From the sequence record CP063550.1: a DNA stretch of 64,000 nucleotides. One strand, written 5' to 3'. Position numbers and translations under genes: made by a program. Under the pieces are notes generated by a model. The model saw only the letters and a list, made by a program, of their open reading frames with translations, had not been told where the DNA came from and did no database searches. This DNA comes from a plasmid. Below, in pieces: positions 177 to 7,283 of this stretch (position 1 is the stretch's first letter; every line of letters starts with the position of its first letter).

Positions 177-788
177 ATGAAGATGAAATTTATTGGATTA
201 GTAGGAACAAATTCAACGCGGTCAACAAACCGTGAATTATTACAGTTTATGAAAAATTATTTTGTAAATGAGGCAGAAATCGAAATTGTCGAAATCAAGG
301 AGCTGCCACTATTTAACAAACCTGAAAACACAGAACTACCAAATGTTGTTAAAGAAATTGCTGGAAAAATTGAACAAGCAGATGGCGTAATCATCAGCAC
401 ACCAGAGTATGACCATGCGGTTCCTGCTTCATTGATTAACGCATTAAATTGGCTTTCATATGGTATTTTTCCGTTTGTGGATAAACCAGTGATGATTACC
501 GGAGCGTCTTATGGCACGTTAGGTTCTTCACGCGCACAAGCACATTTGCGCCAAATATTGGATTCACCAGAGTTAAAGGCACGAATTATGCCAAGCTCAG
601 AATTTTTATTGGGTCATTCACTCCAAGCCTTTGATGAGCAAGGACGACTCATTGATGAAGAACAAGTCGCAAAATTACGTGAACTATTCAAAGATTTCTT
701 ACTCTTTGTCACAATCACTAGTCAATTGCAACATGCGCACCAAGCAAATAAACGTGAAGCCGAAAGCTTTTCATGGGAAACGATTTAA
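177..788 (+). CDS. NAD(P)H-dependent FMN reductase family oxidoreductase (flavodoxin-like fold)
   Basis: 203-aa ORF, RBS 'AGGAAAGAG' upstream. Motifs 'KFIGLVGTNS...DGVIISTPEYDHAVPASLINALNWLS...GASYGTLGSSRAQAHLRQIL' are typical of SsuE/YieF-type FMN reductases. Confidence 0.8.
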   Translation: MKMKFIGLVGTNSTRSTNRELLQFMKNYFVNEAEIEIVEIKELPLFNKPENTELPNVVKEIAGKIEQADGVIISTPEYDHAVPASLINALNWLSYGIFPFVDKPVMITGASYGTLGSSRAQAHLRQILDSPELKARIMPSSEFLLGHSLQAFDEQGRLIDEEQVAKLRELFKDFLLFVTITSQLQHAHQANKREAESFSWETI

Positions 789-807
789 TCGAGGGGAGCA
801 AACAAAG

Positions 808-2028
808 ATGAAATTAATAGGTATCGTCGGATCAGCAGCTGAACTTTCATATAACCGTAAATTATTAACATTTATCCAAAAACAATATCATGAACTATTT
901 AATTTAGAAATCATTGAAATCAAAGATTTACCTCTGTTCAATCAAGATGATGATCAAACAAATAGTCCTGCTATTCAACAGCTAAATCGCAAAATCTTAA
1001 TGGCTGATGGGGTAATTATTGCTACGCCAGAACACAATCATACGGTTCCAGCAGGATTGAAAAGTGCACTTGAATGGCTATCATTTAAAATCCATCCACT
1101 TGAAAATAAACCTGTAATGGTTGTGGGTGCTTCTTACTACGATCAAGGAACTTCACGCGCGCAATTACACTTGCGCCAAATTTTGGACGCACCAGGCGTG
1201 AATGCATTAGTGATGCCCGGAAATGAATTTTTATTGGGAAAAGCAAAAGAAGCATTTGACCAAGAAGATCGCTTGATTGATCCACGAACTGTTGACTTTT
1301 TAGGCAGTACATTAGCAAGTTTTGTAAAATTCATTAAAGTCGTGTCTACCTTAGCAGGGCCTAAAAAGCTTCCACCAGAAGATTTGCATGCGACAGGAAC
1401 AATTGCTACGACAATACCCGATGTTGATATGTCAGATGATCATTGGTTGGAAAAAGCTTCTGAAGCAGTCGGTGCCGTTTCTGGAAATACTTACGTCAAA
1501 TTAAATCGTGGGTTATTGACAGTGGATCAAATCAATTACTTTTTAGATTCGATGCCGATGGAATTAACTTTTGCAGATAATAATAACCAATTTTTATATT
1601 ATAATTTGCGCCAAGAAGCGAAAGAGATGTTAGCTGCTCGTGTGCCCGGTCAGGTAGGGAATCCATTAGCCAACTGTCACCCAGAAAAATCGTATAAAAA
1701 TGTAGAGTGGGTAATTCAACAACTGCGAAGCGGAGCAACAGATGCGGTACGTGTTCATGTACCAAAACAAGTGCCAGAAAAATATATTGTGCATAATTAC
1801 CAAGCAATGCATGATGAAAATGGAGAGTATGCTGGAATCAATGAATACATTCTTGATTTCAAACCAATCATTGAGTGGTATTTACAACAAACGGGTCAAC
1901 AACTTGTTGGAAATGAAGATGCGGTTTCAAGTGCATCTGTTCATGGTGGAAAAACAGATGCAGTAACCAGCGCCAGCACACACGATGAAACTGCAGTAGA
2001 TGCAGTTTCGAGTGCTTCTGTAAAATAA
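808..2028 (+). CDS. FMN-reductase-domain protein fused to a DUF438-like C-terminal domain, possibly 3'-altered by IS insertion
   Basis: Real start is probably ATG 808 (RBS GAGGGGAG at about 790). The track ORF from 631 overlaps the preceding gene. The N-terminus is a paralogue of the preceding reductase. The C-terminus 'FLDSMPMELTFADNNNQFLYY...NCHPEKS...' resembles DUF438. The low-complexity tail repeats 'DAVSSASV'. The stop lies 4 nt before the IS6 inverted repeat at 2032. Confidence 0.65.
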   Translation: MKLIGIVGSAAELSYNRKLLTFIQKQYHELFNLEIIEIKDLPLFNQDDDQTNSPAIQQLNRKILMADGVIIATPEHNHTVPAGLKSALEWLSFKIHPLENKPVMVVGASYYDQGTSRAQLHLRQILDAPGVNALVMPGNEFLLGKAKEAFDQEDRLIDPRTVDFLGSTLASFVKFIKVVSTLAGPKKLPPEDLHATGTIATTIPDVDMSDDHWLEKASEAVGAVSGNTYVKLNRGLLTVDQINYFLDSMPMELTFADNNNQFLYYNLRQEAKEMLAARVPGQVGNPLANCHPEKSYKNVEWVIQQLRSGATDAVRVHVPKQVPEKYIVHNYQAMHDENGEYAGINEYILDFKPIIEWYLQQTGQQLVGNEDAVSSASVHGGKTDAVTSASTHDETAVDAVSSASVK

Positions 2029-2031
2029 AAA

Positions 2032-2840
2032 GGTTCTGTTGCAAAGTTTTAAATAAAGAATAAAGTCCCTTACGGTATCTATGATTTAAGCTGGGATTCC
2101 CAATAATACCTTGATTTCAGTACAGACCGAAAACCCGAAGAGAGTGCCTTCTTTTCGGGTTTTCTTATATAATCCTCGGATGGCTTCCATGCCTTTAATC
2201 GTGGTAGAGGCAGTGCGTAAACTTCGATAGAATTTATTGCGTCTCTTTACTGGACGATGGTCTTGTTCAATCAAATTATTCAGGTATTTAATGGTACGAT
2301 GTTCTGTCCCTTGATAAAAGCCGTATTCTTTTAGTTTCTTAAAGGCACTTGTAATAGAGGGGGCTTTATCTGTGACTACAACCTTCGGTTCATCAAACTG
2401 CTTCACTAACCGCTTAAGAAAAGCATAGGCTGCTTGTGTGTCCCGTTTTTTACGTAACCAAATATCCAAGGTTAAACCATCTGCATCGATGGCTCGATAC
2501 AAATAATGCCATTTTCCTTTAATTTTGATGTACGTTTCATCCATTTTCCATGAATAAAAGGATTTTTTATTTTTCTTTTTCCAAATTTGATAGAGTAGTT
2601 TGCCATATTCTTGCACCCAACGATAAATCGTCGCATGAGAAACGTTAATGCCACGATCATATAAGATTTCTTGAACTTCACGATAGCTAAGGTTATAACG
2701 AAGATAGTAGCCCACGGCTACAATAATCACATCCTGCTGAAATTGCTTTCCTTTAAAATGATTCATCGTCATTCCTCCTGCTATCTTTTTCTATTATTCT
2801 ACCTTATTTGATAGTAGATTTAAAACTTTGCAACAGAACC
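2032..2840 (-). mobile_element. IS6-family insertion sequence, a type-A relative of IS1216, 809 bp
   Basis: Terminal inverted repeats 'GGTTCTGTTGCAAAGTTT' at 2032 and its reverse complement ending at 2840. One 228-aa DDE transposase. No 8-bp target duplication (flanks AATAAAAA and AAAGAACT). Confidence 0.9.
2086..2772 (-). CDS. IS6 family transposase
   Basis: 228 aa, 'MNHFKGKQFQQDVIIVAVGYYLRYNLSYREVQE...DADGLTLDIWLRKKRD...'. It is about 85% identical by eye to the IS1216 transposase copies at 24453 and 29133. Confidence 0.9.
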   Translation of the reverse strand: MTMNHFKGKQFQQDVIIVAVGYYLRYNLSYREVQEILYDRGINVSHATIYRWVQEYGKLLYQIWKKKNKKSFYSWKMDETYIKIKGKWHYLYRAIDADGLTLDIWLRKKRDTQAAYAFLKRLVKQFDEPKVVVTDKAPSITSAFKKLKEYGFYQGTEHRTIKYLNNLIEQDHRPVKRRNKFYRSLRTASTTIKGMEAIRGLYKKTRKEGTLFGFSVCTEIKVLLGIPA

Positions 2841-3119
2841 AAAGAACTCATCAAGCTGGCTAATAAGGGTCAAGATTATGAACATCTAGCAGATGAGATT
2901 GATGAGCTGAGAGACAAGCGACAGCTCCTTTTAGTAGAAGATGCCTCCCTCAGTGGCGAGAACGAGCGAATCAATGAGCTGATTGAATTTATCCGCAAGA
3001 ACAAATTCCGTACCTTAGAGTACGATGATAAGCTTGTAAGGAAGATAATCCAGAGCGTTACAGTCTATGAAGAACACTTCGTCATATCCTTCAAATCTGG
3101 CATCGAAATGGAAATATGA
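2841..3119 (+). pseudogene. C-terminal fragment of a large serine recombinase, truncated by the IS6 copy
   Basis: The ORF starts inside the IS inverted repeat. The tail '...VRKIIQSVTVYEEHFVISFKSGIEMEI' resembles large serine recombinase C-termini. Resemblance only. Confidence 0.35.
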
Positions 3120-3261
3120 AAACCAGAAGTAAATAGCCCATGATTCTACAGTAGAGTCGTGGGTTTTCTTTTGCTTGCTGATTATAATAATATTTTAATA
3201 ACTATTGTTATTATAAACCAAATGATTTATAATATTCTTAGCGTAAACTTGGAGGTGCTGT

Positions 3262-3483
3262 ATGACTACGGCAGAAATGATTAAAGAACTGTGTGAGCAA
3301 ATGAATATAAGTGTTTCCGAACTTGCTAGACGTATTGGACAGACTCCACAGAATTTCAATAAGAAATTACAACGAGAAACGGTAACCTTAGATGAGTTGA
3401 AAGCGATTGCTGATGTGCTAGGTGTCAAGTTTGTGCAGGCTTTTATATTGCCTGATGGCAATGAAATAAAGATAGGTAATTAG
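3262..3483 (+). CDS. XRE-family helix-turn-helix transcriptional regulator
   Basis: 73 aa. HTH 'ISVSELARRIGQTPQNFNKKLQRE'. RBS GGAGGTG upstream. An AT-rich palindromic region at 3180-3240 could be its operator. Confidence 0.75.
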   Translation: MTTAEMIKELCEQMNISVSELARRIGQTPQNFNKKLQRETVTLDELKAIADVLGVKFVQAFILPDGNEIKIGN

Positions 3484-3498
3484 GAGGTGTAATTTGTA

Positions 3499-4341
3499 TT
3501 GAAAATCATAACAATAAATGATGTTGAGTATGCTGTATTTGCTGCTAATGAAGGTACTTCCAAACCACAACCTCATATCATAGAAACGAAATCTGGTACT
3601 ATTCCAGAAGGAAAACAACTGAGTTTATTAAAAGAATATCTTAAGCAGAATGATATTTCCCCAATAAAAGGAGCAACAACATATTGGTGCATTGACAAGG
3701 TTCTTAAGCTTGATTCAAGTAAAGAAAAAACTATAAGTGAAACAATCCATAAACAAAAATACTTATCTTTAACTGAAGAAAATATTGAGAAACAGCATAA
3801 GTTTGTAGGTGCAAGCTCTAATTATGGGAAAGAAGGTCTAATAATACATGATGTTTTGAATGCATTTCCTCTTCATAATGATTTAAATACTATTGCGATG
3901 AAGATTGCGGTAATTGATGTAACAAATTCAACACATCTTTCTCAATATAAGAGCAGGTTGTCTCTATATGATTTGGCTAAAGTAATTCTGGAGATTCCAA
4001 ATTTTGATGATCGGTTGGCAAAAGGAGATCCTCAGTTGATAAATATTATCGCAAGGAACATTGGTGCAGTTAATATGTTCTCATTTGCATCCAAGTACTG
4101 TACATATCATAATGTGGAAGTGTGTGGGAGAGATGATTACTCCATCTTTGATGGTATCGTTAAAAATACTCTTCCACACTATATCCAAGGACTAACTACG
4201 AATAAGATTGATACGTGGCGAAGAAGTTTTGATTACGAGGCATTTAACGAATGTGTTGGAAAACTACTTGATGAAAATAATATACATATTCCTTTTAGAA
4301 GAAGAAAGTTAGATCACTTCTTGTGGTATGCGAATAGGTAG
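3499..4341 (+). CDS. hypothetical protein (280 aa), TTG start, no family recognised
   Basis: Strong RBS TAGGAGGTG at 3481-3489 followed by TTG 3499. No recognisable catalytic motif except a C-terminal 'RRRKLDH' (an Rx4H, HEPN-like spacing). That is weak. Confidence 0.5.
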   Translation: MKIITINDVEYAVFAANEGTSKPQPHIIETKSGTIPEGKQLSLLKEYLKQNDISPIKGATTYWCIDKVLKLDSSKEKTISETIHKQKYLSLTEENIEKQHKFVGASSNYGKEGLIIHDVLNAFPLHNDLNTIAMKIAVIDVTNSTHLSQYKSRLSLYDLAKVILEIPNFDDRLAKGDPQLINIIARNIGAVNMFSFASKYCTYHNVEVCGRDDYSIFDGIVKNTLPHYIQGLTTNKIDTWRRSFDYEAFNECVGKLLDENNIHIPFRRRKLDHFLWYANR

Positions 4342-4385
4342 AATATAAGAAAAAGGCATCGTAAAAGTGATTCTGGATAAAATTA

Positions 4386-6206
4386 ATGGGGGAGGAAATA
4401 ATAGTGGGATTATTTGATTTTCTAAAGAAAAAACAAGGAAAGGTTAGTAAACACGTTGATTATCAACTGGCTTCTAGTCTATTTCGTACTGGTAAAGTTT
4501 TTGCTGAAAAATTGGAAGTGGACATATCAAATGTAGATGAGTTTCGTAAAACTTTTATCGCTTTTGATGTGGAAACAACTGGCCTAAATTCTTCTTCAGA
4601 TAGAATTGTAGAGATTGGTGCGGTGCTATTTAAAGAAGGAGTTCCAATTCAATCATTCGGAACTCTTGTCAATCCAAAAGTTAGAATTGCAGCCTCAGCT
4701 TCGGCAATAAATAATATAACTAATGAAATGCTAAACTCTGCTCCAAATGAGCAGGAAGTTTACCCCCAGTTGGTAGAATTTTTAGGAGATGCACTAGATG
4801 GAAAAATCACTATGTGTGCACACAATGCAAGTTTCGATTTTGGATTTTTAAGTAACACATTTTCTAGACTTGGGTATGATGCTAAAATTAAGTATGTTGA
4901 TACTCTGAGTCTCTCTAGAAAACATATAAAAGGCATTGTAAATCATAAGCAAGAGACTGTAGCGGAATATTTCGGATTAATAAATGACACTGCCCATAGA
5001 GCGGAATCAGATGCAGATATATGCGGAAAGATTTTTTGGGGTGTTTTAGATATTATTGAGGAGTCGTTGGAAGAACAAAAAAAGCAAATAGAAAAGATGA
5101 CTCCAGACATAAAAGAACTTGAAGCTTGTGCTTTTATTCAAGATATTATTGAGAAAAAAGGATGCGACACCAGTTGGATCAGGTATCGAAAAAACAGTAA
5201 TAATTATGTCGATGTAACTTGTCTATATACATTCTTAAAGTTTAAGTTTGCTAAGAAGGGAAATTACATCATTATTAGAAAAGATGCTACAAATGGAATT
5301 GATTTACCTATAGAACCTTGTACTGTAAGTGAAGGCGGTACAACAAATGTGCGAGTCTATTTTCGTAGCCCCTTTGACTTAACGCCTCTTTCAAATTATA
5401 TTTTCAGTGCTTATAGCGATTGTTATAATTCTATGAATGAATATATGAGTGTTAGTAATTACACTAAAAAAGAAGCAGAGCAAAGCCTTAGTATGCTGAA
5501 ATCTATTTCAAAATCAGCGATGAAAGAGTTATTATTCGATGCAAAAAATCGTGGATATGATGAGACTGAAGTTAACCTAAATATTGAAAAAGTGATATCT
5601 AGAGAAGATGTAATTATTAACGGGTTGCATAATCGAGTTTCATTAAACAAGATACGAAATATAGGGAATTGGGAGAAAGGATTTGATGCAGGTTATCCAT
5701 ATTGGGAACGTGGAGAAACTGCTAGGAAAAATGGCAAAGTAGATGAAGCTATTGCACTTTTTGATAAAGCTCGATATAACGGCTATGATGCTCCTGCGCT
5801 ATATGATTCTTATGCTAAAGCTTATCGAAAAATTAAGGATTACGATAATGAAATTCTCATTCTTGATGAAGGAATTATGCGTAAAACACGGCACGATGTT
5901 GGTACTTTAGAGGCTCGTAGGGATAAGGCAATTAAGCTATTATTTGCTAAACAAGAGGCAGAGCGGATAGCTAAGGAAAAATCTGATTTTCTAAAAGCGA
6001 ACAAAAAAGAGGATGCGATTAGTGAGCCTAGCAAGAAGCGTGGAAGACAGATTATTCAAATGACTGATGATGGAACAATAATAAAAGAATTCGATACTAT
6101 AGCTTCTGCTGTAAAAGAAGTTGGCGTTAACTCAAAAAGTATTAGGGATGCTGCAAATGGAGTTCAAAAACATGCTGGAGGATACTACTGGAAATACAAA
6201 GATTAG
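4386..6206 (+). CDS. DEDDh (DnaQ-like) 3'-5' exonuclease domain protein with a helical middle region and a C-terminal NUMOD-like DNA-binding domain
   Basis: Exo motifs I 'FDVETTGL', II 'CAHNASFDFGFL' and III 'HRAESDADI'. The C-terminus 'IIQMTDDGTIIKEFDTIASAVKEVGVNSKSIRDAANGVQKHAGGYYWKYK' resembles the DNA-binding module of GIY-YIG/HNH homing endonucleases. No Walker A motif. An alternative start is GTG 4404 (RBS GGGGGAGG at 4388-4395). Confidence 0.7.
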   Translation: MGEEIIVGLFDFLKKKQGKVSKHVDYQLASSLFRTGKVFAEKLEVDISNVDEFRKTFIAFDVETTGLNSSSDRIVEIGAVLFKEGVPIQSFGTLVNPKVRIAASASAINNITNEMLNSAPNEQEVYPQLVEFLGDALDGKITMCAHNASFDFGFLSNTFSRLGYDAKIKYVDTLSLSRKHIKGIVNHKQETVAEYFGLINDTAHRAESDADICGKIFWGVLDIIEESLEEQKKQIEKMTPDIKELEACAFIQDIIEKKGCDTSWIRYRKNSNNYVDVTCLYTFLKFKFAKKGNYIIIRKDATNGIDLPIEPCTVSEGGTTNVRVYFRSPFDLTPLSNYIFSAYSDCYNSMNEYMSVSNYTKKEAEQSLSMLKSISKSAMKELLFDAKNRGYDETEVNLNIEKVISREDVIINGLHNRVSLNKIRNIGNWEKGFDAGYPYWERGETARKNGKVDEAIALFDKARYNGYDAPALYDSYAKAYRKIKDYDNEILILDEGIMRKTRHDVGTLEARRDKAIKLLFAKQEAERIAKEKSDFLKANKKEDAISEPSKKRGRQIIQMTDDGTIIKEFDTIASAVKEVGVNSKSIRDAANGVQKHAGGYYWKYKD

Positions 6207-6245
6207 CAGATAATCTAAGATAACCTAGGATCTTCTTAATAGATA

Positions 6246-7283
6246 CCCGTGGTGCTAGTTAATTTTAATATCCTAAAGAATATCTCAAAGTTCCTTCAAA
6301 ACGTCGTTGTGCTCGACTTAATAGAACACTGTAAGCCAGTAATATGCTTTCAAATCTACTCTCTAGCCCTTTAACAGAACGTGAGTTGAAATTTTGACAA
6401 CCTAATTTTTCTAAGGAAGAAAAAACAGTCCCAACTGTTTTTCTTTGTTTTCCAAGTAAGCTGTGGTCTAGTTTTTCTGATTTATCCATGTTTTTACGTG
6501 GCGGAATGGATATAGTAATGCCCATAAGGGCAAGCTTTTCATGGATTTTATGGCTAATATATCCTTTGTCCCCTAGGATATTGGGAAGATTCGCTTCTTC
6601 CGATAAAGTCTCTAACACTTTCACGTCATGGACACCTGGATTCGTGATTGAGTAAGTAATCGGAAAGCCAGTCTTAGTAACGATCATATGAATTTTAAGA
6701 CCATAAAAATAAGATTTTTTTGTTGAGTTATAGCCAACTTTGGCTATTTGATTCAATAGTTTTGCTTGTCTATTTCTAACTGGTTTACATAATGGACTAG
6801 GAAAACTATCTATAATTCCGACTAGTTCACCTTTGGTGAGCTTCTTGATGAAAAAGTATCGAATAATCTTGATAGTGTAAGCTAAGTTTGAACTTAAGCG
6901 AGTGAATCGACTCCTACTAGGAAAGTCACCATTAGGAAATAAGACGGAACAAACCGCTCTATACGTGGCTCTTTGGCTAGTATAGCCATTAATTATGCCC
7001 CATATAACACAAGCAATAATCACTGTATCGCGTTGCTTCAGTTGATCAGTATTTCTTCGGTTTTTAATCTTATCTGGTACACAATTGTGGTATATGTTAG
7101 AAACAGTTCTCATAATTTCCTTGAATGTTATAAAAGTATCTGTATAATGTTCAGTATATTTTGATGAACGCATATGTAGTCCTCATTTCTTGGGAGTTTT
7201 GAGACTACTATATGCGTTTTTTTGTTGATTTACCAACATGTTTAGACATTTTCCTCTAGGAAAAAATTAACTAGCACCACGGG
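6246..7283 (-). mobile_element. IS982-family insertion sequence, 1038 bp
   Basis: Perfect 22-bp terminal inverted repeats 'ACCCGTGGTGCTAGTTAATTTT' at 6246-6267 and 7262-7283 (reverse complement). One DDE transposase. Confidence 0.85.
6265..7173 (-). CDS. IS982 family transposase
   Basis: 302 aa with the characteristic '...LGDKGYIS...' DDE region. Confidence 0.85.
   Translation of the reverse strand: MRSSKYTEHYTDTFITFKEIMRTVSNIYHNCVPDKIKNRRNTDQLKQRDTVIIACVIWGIINGYTSQRATYRAVCSVLFPNGDFPSRSRFTRLSSNLAYTIKIIRYFFIKKLTKGELVGIIDSFPSPLCKPVRNRQAKLLNQIAKVGYNSTKKSYFYGLKIHMIVTKTGFPITYSITNPGVHDVKVLETLSEEANLPNILGDKGYISHKIHEKLALMGITISIPPRKNMDKSEKLDHSLLGKQRKTVGTVFSSLEKLGCQNFNSRSVKGLESRFESILLAYSVLLSRAQRRFEGTLRYSLGY

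Follow-up and report, generated by a model that had tools for sequence, protein, structure and literature searches.

A predicted mosaic cargo operon joining a glycosylase-fold protein and a DEDDh exonuclease behind a mobile-element promoter on Enterococcus faecium megaplasmids

Defence-associated glycosylases (Dag proteins) are small members of the helix-hairpin-helix (HhH) superfamily that reside on mobile elements and go unrecognised by sequence searches; acting as single genes, they excise 7-deazaguanine-type bases and fragment phage DNA, and Dag1 depends on K118, D184 and W188, with a contribution from D132 (10.1101/2025.10.29.685425). END nucleases couple an OGG/EndoIII-like module to a nuclease directed against hypermodified phage DNA (PMC12191111), while Brig1 and Brig3-BapA carry out antiphage base excision from modified phage DNA, Brig3 being encoded in an operon with its helper (PMC11078745, PMC13160076). 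Getz et al. place Brig1 and Brig2 under UDG-like proteins (10.1101/2025.10.29.685425), and Yee et al. regard the OGG/EndoIII-like domain of END as unlike Brig1 (PMC12191111). Here, we examine a locus within a 64,000-nt stretch (hereafter the window) of record CP063550.1, a conjugative Enterococcus faecium megaplasmid of hospital origin, in which genes for an XRE-type regulator, a 280-aa protein and a DEDDh 3′–5′ exonuclease follow one another on the same strand (Table 1). The original prediction for this locus was a three-gene antiphage or anti-plasmid module with its own regulator.

Our analysis indicates that the locus is a mosaic cargo operon lying behind the promoter of a mobile-element platform. 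Its cargo joins a protein with a modelled DNA-glycosylase (HhH-GPD) fold to an exonuclease and thereby brings together known kinds of system, glycosylase-based and nuclease-based defence; it is not categorically new. The three ORFs are present at the positions predicted for them, all three are under purifying selection (dN/dS 0.05–0.39; XRE gene 0.05–0.07, exonuclease 0.08–0.39), and a hairpin scan of the locus found no terminator between them. The promoter ahead of the XRE gene likely drives the whole three-gene operon, and the layout of promoter and terminator predicts a single transcription unit. The pair formed by the 280-aa gene and the exonuclease gene is one recent cassette, not a conserved syntenic system.

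The 280-aa protein, which had been listed as unknown, has in its structural model the HhH-GPD fold of DNA glycosylases; the TTG start and strong ribosome-binding site ascribed to its gene (GGAGGTG, 9 nt upstream) were both found. The model consists of an N-terminal beta/alpha domain (aa 1–75), a linker and an HhH-GPD/Ogg2-like core (aa ~86–280). In a fold search, it resembled solved HhH-GPD glycosylases, and its closest structural neighbours were repair glycosylases, aGOG and Ogg2 among them. Public annotation places the family in the newer Pfam family PF27257 ('HI_0787_N'); a literature search on HI_0787 returned nothing relevant, and Pfam, NCBIfam, PHROG and PADLOC profile searches with the 280-aa protein gave no match. 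An exhaustive HMMER search yielded 615 representatives at 50 % clustering, in which the N-terminus varies while a core of ~195 aa (~86–280), which often stands alone, is conserved. K135 and K199 are invariant in this family, and D140, D170, D212, D218, D272 and W276 show conservation of 90 % or more. In the secondary structure of the model, K199 lies within helix 194–207 and D218 caps helix 219–228, and the pattern, from which we read the register, suggests that K199 (on the second helix of the putative HhH) and D218 are the candidate catalytic Lys/Asp. Their spacing of 19 residues is presumably that of K249/D268 of hOGG1 in the bifunctional HhH glycosylase/lyases.

Of the described systems, Dag proteins offer the nearest functional precedent. 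Both the 280-aa protein and Dag have an HhH-superfamily fold with no sequence link to housekeeping glycosylases, a core of ~200 aa, a mobile-element or defence setting, and aGOG and Ogg2 as structural neighbours; the Dag-type traits of HhH fold, small single-domain core and mobile/defence context are found in the 280-aa family as a whole. The family pattern K...D(+13/14)...D...W(+4) (K199, D212/213, D218, D272 and W276) also recalls K118/D132/D184/W188 of Dag1, although the spacing from the Lys to the second Asp is +73 in the 280-aa family and +66 in Dag1. No family representative carries the Dag1 residue numbering, and there is no taxon or accession overlap with the Dag tables. The 280-aa protein further differs from Dag in its extra 75-aa N-terminal domain and in the predicted co-transcription of its gene with that of an exonuclease. 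With END, the locus has in common a glycosylase-like module accompanied by a nuclease, and END shows modular swapping of sensor and nuclease (PMC12191111). END is, however, a single polypeptide in which a catalytically dead EndoIII domain is joined to a PLD nuclease, whereas the present locus has separate genes, retains the catalytic-type Lys/Asp and encodes a DEDDh exonuclease as its nuclease, a place taken by GIY-YIG or GmrSD proteins in relatives. The 280-aa protein can be set beside Brig by description only: antiphage base excision would be common to both, and like Brig3 the glycosylase-fold protein shares a predicted operon with a second enzyme, but the partner of Brig3, BapA, is a deglucosylating hydrolase and no nuclease.

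The second cargo protein is, as proposed, a DEDDh exonuclease with a predicted homing-endonuclease-type DNA-binding tail, and no curated family spans its whole architecture. A 606-aa ORF exists as reported, but the gene most likely starts at GTG 4404 and encodes 600 aa, since the spacing of the ribosome-binding site (GGAGG at 4391–4395, 8-nt spacer), the N-termini of homologues, which begin MGLFDFLKKK, and the RefSeq annotation (600 aa) agree. The ATG at 4386 overlaps the gene's own Shine-Dalgarno sequence. Residue numbers below are those of the 606-aa ORF. The N-terminal motif has the form MGLFDF[LF]KKK and is followed by a disordered linker of ~25 aa; model confidence (pLDDT) is ~33 over residues 1–32 and 88 for the AlphaFold model. 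This peptide could be a docking motif or an amphipathic membrane-targeting motif. Pfam RNase_T (PF00929) matched the exonuclease domain with 102.2 bits against a cut-off of 24, and the DEDDh motifs quoted in the original prediction are present: D61/E63 (Exo I, DxE), N147/D151 (Exo II, NxxxD) and H204/D209 (Exo III, HxxxxD) are invariant in 64 homologues of 50–75 % identity. Foldseek matched this domain to the exonuclease domains of DnaQ, PolC and DinG with TM(target) ~0.8.

What had been described as a helical region of ~300 aa between this domain and the tail is actually a beta/alpha middle domain (~242–420) followed by TPR-like helices (~429–542). A profile search of PDB and Pfam found no match for the middle domain, and a Foldseek search of the 606-aa model against PDB returned matches for the exonuclease domain only, with none for the middle or TPR regions. 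The TPR region may mediate protein–protein contacts. The tail matched I-HmuI_NUMOD-like PF22083 (E value 5e-5; 23.1 bits, just under the 27-bit cut-off), NUMOD1 (11 bits against 22.8), PADLOC 'HEase' (E value 4e-9) and the HNH-endonuclease PHROG phrog_20162 (E value 2.6e-5), and several homologues have a recorded PF22083 match.

Among the PolC, DnaQ and DinG types, PolC is the nearest to the exonuclease domain, but the window protein has no polymerase or helicase part, adds the TPR region and the NUMOD-like tail, and has a mobile/defence location. NCBIfam PRK06807 (an equivalog) matched over aa 55–364, with profile positions 8–307 of 313 covered and the middle domain included, but at 191.9 bits against a cut-off of 335; phrog_14632, whose score was likewise below cut-off, also spans the middle domain. 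To PADLOC PDC-S48, itself an unvalidated candidate, and Cas2-DEDDh, the likeness is that of a DEDDh exonuclease in a defence context, but only the exonuclease domain of PDC-S48 matches (profile 4–170 of 411; 14–172 of 512) and the C-terminal architecture differs. The ~50-aa C-terminal tail is alike in sequence to the NUMOD/I-HmuI modules of GIY-YIG/HNH homing endonucleases; here, however, the module is attached to an exonuclease, not to an endonuclease, Pfam and NCBIfam searches found no GIY-YIG or HNH domain, and the sole catalytic domain is DEDDh. Our literature search on this exonuclease family, which included PDC-S48 and accession numbers, found none. Two candidate families were considered and rejected: the diDNases, which are NrnC-like, and the ISG20-like TONDO exonucleases, a different family.

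The exonuclease family is widespread in Firmicutes, with more than 1,000 homologues, mostly full length. Its variants include tail-less proteins (538–544 aa; L006 and L022), in which homology ends at window position 6014, exactly at the disordered linker, prophage variants without the middle domain (505–537 aa; L098–L107) and a 494-aa variant without TPR that is inserted between phage tail chaperone and tape-measure genes (L097). As a solo gene, the exonuclease occurs on integrative and conjugative elements (ICEs), in prophages and in defence islands, and its contexts are consistently mobile or defence-like. Neighbours of homologues comprise an AAA_13/PDC-S06 ATPase; RhuM with a UvrD-like gene; AbiEi/AbiEii; a MobL relaxase with a Mokosh-like helicase; NikA-like with DUF6061; a lysis module with FtsK/SpoIIIE; a PDC-M62A/B pair with SspB; and a second DEDDh gene with DUF5677 and IS110. 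One further homologue lies at a prophage edge, adjoining an XRE-type gene and a serine integrase. Small DEDDh genes were seen within 1–2 kb of a large exonuclease homologue at two unrelated loci (L142/L143, 3880–4695, 271 aa, DEDDh_C; L144, 7961–8548, 195 aa).

Comparison of related records indicates that the XRE gene is a platform gene and no dedicated partner of the 280-aa/exonuclease cargo. The stretch made up of terminator, promoter and XRE ORF (window 3120–3474) recurs with 92–94 % nucleotide identity in ~208 other enterococcal plasmids and is also present in Streptococcus prophage Javan630. In related records, it sits directly after large serine-recombinase genes: an intact recombinase triplet (~520, 138 and 520 aa) lies upstream of XRE in L012 and L014, and the counterpart of window 2841–3119 is the end of a 458–520-aa recombinase within the triplet (L006, L012 and L014). 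Streptococcal Tn5252-type ICEs are known to have integration modules made up of such triplets (PMC13089153); the likeness to these modules lies in the triplet upstream of XRE, whereas only the last ~93 recombinase codons remain in the window. Downstream of XRE, other plasmids carry an NTase-domain gene, a methyltransferase gene and ant(6)-Ia resistance genes. The Caproicibacterium and Vagococcus loci (L006 and L007) have two XRE copies each with different cargo behind each, one copy preceding the 280-aa/exonuclease pair and the other an SMI1/Tox-GHH or Crp-like set. A multiple alignment places the break in homology among the cargo types in the final ~10 codons of the XRE ORF. Because the XRE gene is common to unrelated cargo and homology ends at its 3′ end, the view of it as the repressor of the module finds no support, and the idea of a conserved three-gene module with its own XRE had to be abandoned. 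The XRE gene would instead supply the promoter and probably its regulation. Its product is 73–74 aa long across platform copies, and the interchangeable cargo of the platform (L006, L007 and L011–L014) consists of an NTase/MTase/ant(6)-Ia cluster, SMI1-Tox-GHH, a Crp-like set and the glycosylase-fold/exonuclease pair.

As to function, our tentative preference, held at rather less than even probability, is that the cassette is DNA-targeting defence cargo acting on invading phage or plasmid DNA by base excision, nicking and resection. The 280-aa protein, as a glycosylase of the Dag type, would flip a non-canonical base out of the invading DNA and excise it; the conserved Lys/Asp hint at a bifunctional enzyme, which would nick the strand as well. 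The NUMOD-like tail would hold the DEDDh exonuclease on DNA, so that the enzyme could enter at nicks or ends and resect, and base excision would become irreparable damage; the XRE protein would regulate the platform promoter without being specific for this cargo. From sequences and models, we infer the enzymatic activities, the substrates, the cooperation of the proteins and the protective phenotype. The modelled fold and the conserved residues of the 280-aa protein, the precedents of Dag and END, the intact DEDDh motifs and tail, the island context, the pairings of family members with GIY-YIG and GmrSD genes described below, the single promoter and the purifying selection all support this reading. 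The defence role foreseen in the original prediction is plausible in that solo exonuclease homologues adjoin PDC-S06, PDC-M62A/B, SspB, Mokosh-like helicase and AbiE genes; the conservation of the pair did not hold up.

Several results weigh against this reading. Foldseek gives the glycosylase fold weak E values (best 0.13), the 280-aa protein has no HhH-GPD/OGG match in Pfam or NCBIfam at an E value ≤1, and it has no sequence match in PDB even with a 69-sequence profile. No link to Dag1–17 emerged from residue numbering, the taxa and accessions of the tables, or a core-profile search, the Dag sequences themselves not having been compared. Synteny of the pair, which the original prediction had set up as its test, is confined to a single lineage. 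The 280-aa family was surveyed at 80 species-level loci with flanks of up to 6 kb on each side; the exonuclease is adjacent in only three, whose 280-aa proteins are at least 89 % identical, and it is absent from these flanks at the remaining 77 loci (identities from 77 % to 39 %). Conversely, exonuclease homologues at 45–66 % identity never accompany the 280-aa gene in the loci examined, and at least ten distinct exonuclease contexts outside the cassette lineage are without it. In those contexts, 270–440 bp of non-coding DNA lies upstream of the exonuclease, which suggests that the solo genes have their own promoter. Compared with Vagococcus, the exonuclease gene has a synonymous divergence (dS) of 0.016, against 0.42 for the 280-aa gene and 0.35 for XRE; this discordance, more than 20-fold between the two cargo genes, points to different histories for them. 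Finally, Granulicatella seriolae (L001, 534–930) still has the exonuclease, but ahead of it only the final 58 nt of the 280-aa gene are left, joined directly to an XRE remnant; this is an apparent deletion derivative of the same cassette. A possible fourth cassette gene was considered and rejected, the proteins encoded 3′ of the exonuclease in Granulicatella, Caproicibacterium and Vagococcus being mutually unrelated.

Elsewhere in the glycosylase-fold family, other nuclease genes take the place directly 3′ of the family member. A LEM-3-like GIY-YIG gene occupies it in eight loci (L037, L038, L043, L050, L058, L060, L075 and L086), with gaps of −32 to +191 nt that shrink to 2–16 nt in three; another GIY-YIG protein is found there in three loci (L041, L044 and L077) and GmrSD_N/DUF7834 in three. 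The GIY-YIG pairing persists as both genes diverge (62–73 % against 44–65 % identity), and the combination of PF27257 with GIY-YIG, found in metagenome-assembled genomes of Bacilli, Mollicutes and Clostridia as well as in Mycoplasmopsis iners, has the look of a two-gene module not yet described. Macro, Nmad3, SIR2 and NOV_C genes also occur near family members. The recurrent pairings, together with the precedent of the END nucleases (PMC12191111), keep alive the idea of a glycosylase with an exchangeable nuclease. In its fullest form, PF27257 proteins would be active, Dag-like glycosylases that recognise and nick DNA as one half of two-gene, modification-dependent destruction systems; the other half, the nuclease, would be freely swapped from lineage to lineage (DEDDh, LEM-3-like GIY-YIG, GIY-YIG or GmrSD), and the cassette would shield hospital enterococci by 'excise-then-resect' from base-modified phages or incoming plasmids. 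Taken as a whole, we consider this rather improbable. A homologue with 75 % identity to the 280-aa protein was also noted in a Tn916-like element (L010, 669–5645), just downstream of SIR2_2 and NOV_C and upstream of DUF2971, a neighbourhood that is a probable defence island.

Nearly as likely as defence by cooperation, if doubtful on its own account, is that two independent single-gene functions, in defence or in competition between elements, were juxtaposed by recombination downstream of the platform promoter and do not cooperate. The solo exonucleases with their apparent own promoters in at least ten contexts, the discordant dS, the Granulicatella derivative and the tail-less variants are all as this explanation would have them, as are the many unrelated cargoes of the platform and the fact that validated Dag glycosylases act as single genes. 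It sits less well with the recurrence of a nuclease immediately downstream of glycosylase-fold genes and co-diverging with them, with the persistence of the pair, despite allele exchange, in four or more hosts, and with the tight spacing of the two genes (44 or 62 nt, depending on the exonuclease start) with no terminator between. The resemblance of the 280-aa protein to repair glycosylases and of the exonuclease to the PolC, DnaQ and DinG domains could also point to a mobile mini base-excision-repair or DNA-maintenance module, in which a glycosylase/lyase and an enzyme for 3′-end cleaning or proofreading aid the survival of plasmid or host. Bifunctional glycosylases leave 3′-blocked ends that need trimming, which would fit such a module. 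We nevertheless think it unlikely, given the patchy mobile distribution, the defence-island neighbours and the highly variable N-termini and domain composition; repair exonucleases do not usually carry a NUMOD tail or TPR, and housekeeping glycosylases, unlike Dag-like ones, are core-genome genes.

Free-standing homing endonucleases typically have a NUMOD-like tail such as this one, one variant of the exonuclease lies inside a phage tail module, and other copies adjoin MobL relaxase, NikA-like, FtsK/SpoIIIE and serine integrase genes, all of which would suit an exonuclease that is selfish or serves its element (as a homing-type gene, or as an establishment or anti-defence factor) beside a glycosylase-like gene that is unrelated cargo. 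The chances of this seem slim: homing requires a double-strand break, which a DEDDh exonuclease cannot produce, the GIY-YIG or HNH domain that could was not found in our searches, and many copies are in chromosomal defence islands. Least probable of all, to the point that we rejected it, is a toxin–antitoxin or abortive-infection module in which XRE would hold a toxic nuclease in check as antitoxin or repressor. Some records label the gene 'antitoxin, Xre family', and it has weak PADLOC matches to PDC-M69A and CapH, but the same XRE precedes at least four unrelated cargoes, antibiotic-resistance genes included, and so is not toxin-specific, and exonuclease homologues mostly have no adjacent XRE.

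The cassette is present on at least 90 sequenced E. faecium megaplasmids without functional annotation of either cargo protein. NZ_CP025426 is one of many records that match window 2700–6400 with 100 % identity, and no fewer than 90 plasmids carry 80 % or more of this stretch; the exact sequences of both cargo proteins occur on ~500 to more than 1,000 contigs, with 'hypothetical' or 'exonuclease domain-containing' as the only public labels. The same recombinase/XRE platform carries either aminoglycoside-resistance clusters or candidate defence cargo. If the 280-aa protein is an active defence glycosylase, Dag-type immunity would extend to Gram-positive clinical plasmids, and PF27257, with its hundreds of diverged members, would gain a testable function; if it truly cooperates with the exonuclease, the pair would be a split, catalytically active counterpart of the END nucleases with swappable nuclease partners. 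The locus also has a bearing on phage therapy against vancomycin-resistant enterococci.

Table 1. Features of the locus and its flanks, in window coordinates (aa numbering of the exonuclease as in the 606-aa ORF)
Feature	Position	Strand	Basis
IS1216 (IS6 family) transposase, left flank	2086–2772	−	Pfam/library matches and annotation
3′ remnant of large serine recombinase gene, cut by IS1216	2841–3119	+	Homology with intact-recombinase loci begins at 2841
Terminator-like hairpin closing the recombinase gene	3135–3165	+	14-bp stem, then T-run; kept in all platform copies
Sigma-70-like promoter TTGTTA-17-TATAAT in AT-rich palindromic DNA	3205–3233	+	10/12 consensus positions; kept across platform copies
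XRE/Cro-C1-type HTH regulator, 73 aa	3262–3483	+	HTH_26, E value 4e-14
280-aa glycosylase-fold protein	3499–4341	+	TTG start, GGAGGTG 9 nt upstream
Candidate catalytic Lys/Asp codons, K199 to D218 of the 280-aa protein	4093–4152	+	Conservation, secondary structure, 19-residue spacing
DEDDh 3′–5′ exonuclease, 600 aa (ORF reaches ATG 4386 = 606 aa)	4404–6206	+	Profile, fold, invariant residues
Conserved N-terminal peptide MGLFDFLKKK and disordered linker (aa 7–37)	4404–4496	+	Motif at residue 2 in 36/64 homologues
DnaQ/PolC-type DEDDh exonuclease domain (aa 38–238)	4497–5099	+	RNase_T 102 bits; PDB 2p1j, E value 3e-24; Foldseek
Middle beta/alpha domain (aa ~242–420)	5109–5645	+	High pLDDT; common to PRK06807 and phrog_14632
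TPR-like helices and long helix (aa ~429–542)	5670–6011	+	Weak TPR Pfam matches (aa 439–494); model helices
NUMOD-like DNA-binding tail, small beta/alpha domain (aa 556–604)	6051–6197	+	Profile matches and model
ISEfm1 (IS982 family), ends the cassette	6246–7173	−	Vagococcus homology stops at 6245; transposase Pfam matches and annotation (transposase 6265–7173)

The flanks are as originally described, with an IS6-family element (IS1216) and a serine-recombinase remnant on the left and an IS982-family element (ISEfm1) on the right. The end given for the module, 6245, is where homology stops, and it can now be placed exactly at the ISEfm1 junction. Upstream of IS1216 (window 177–2028) are two NADPH-dependent FMN-reductase-type genes, with a flavin transferase annotated by RefSeq further upstream; the TTG-started ORF at 631–2028 is over-extended, the matching RefSeq coding sequence being window 808–2028.

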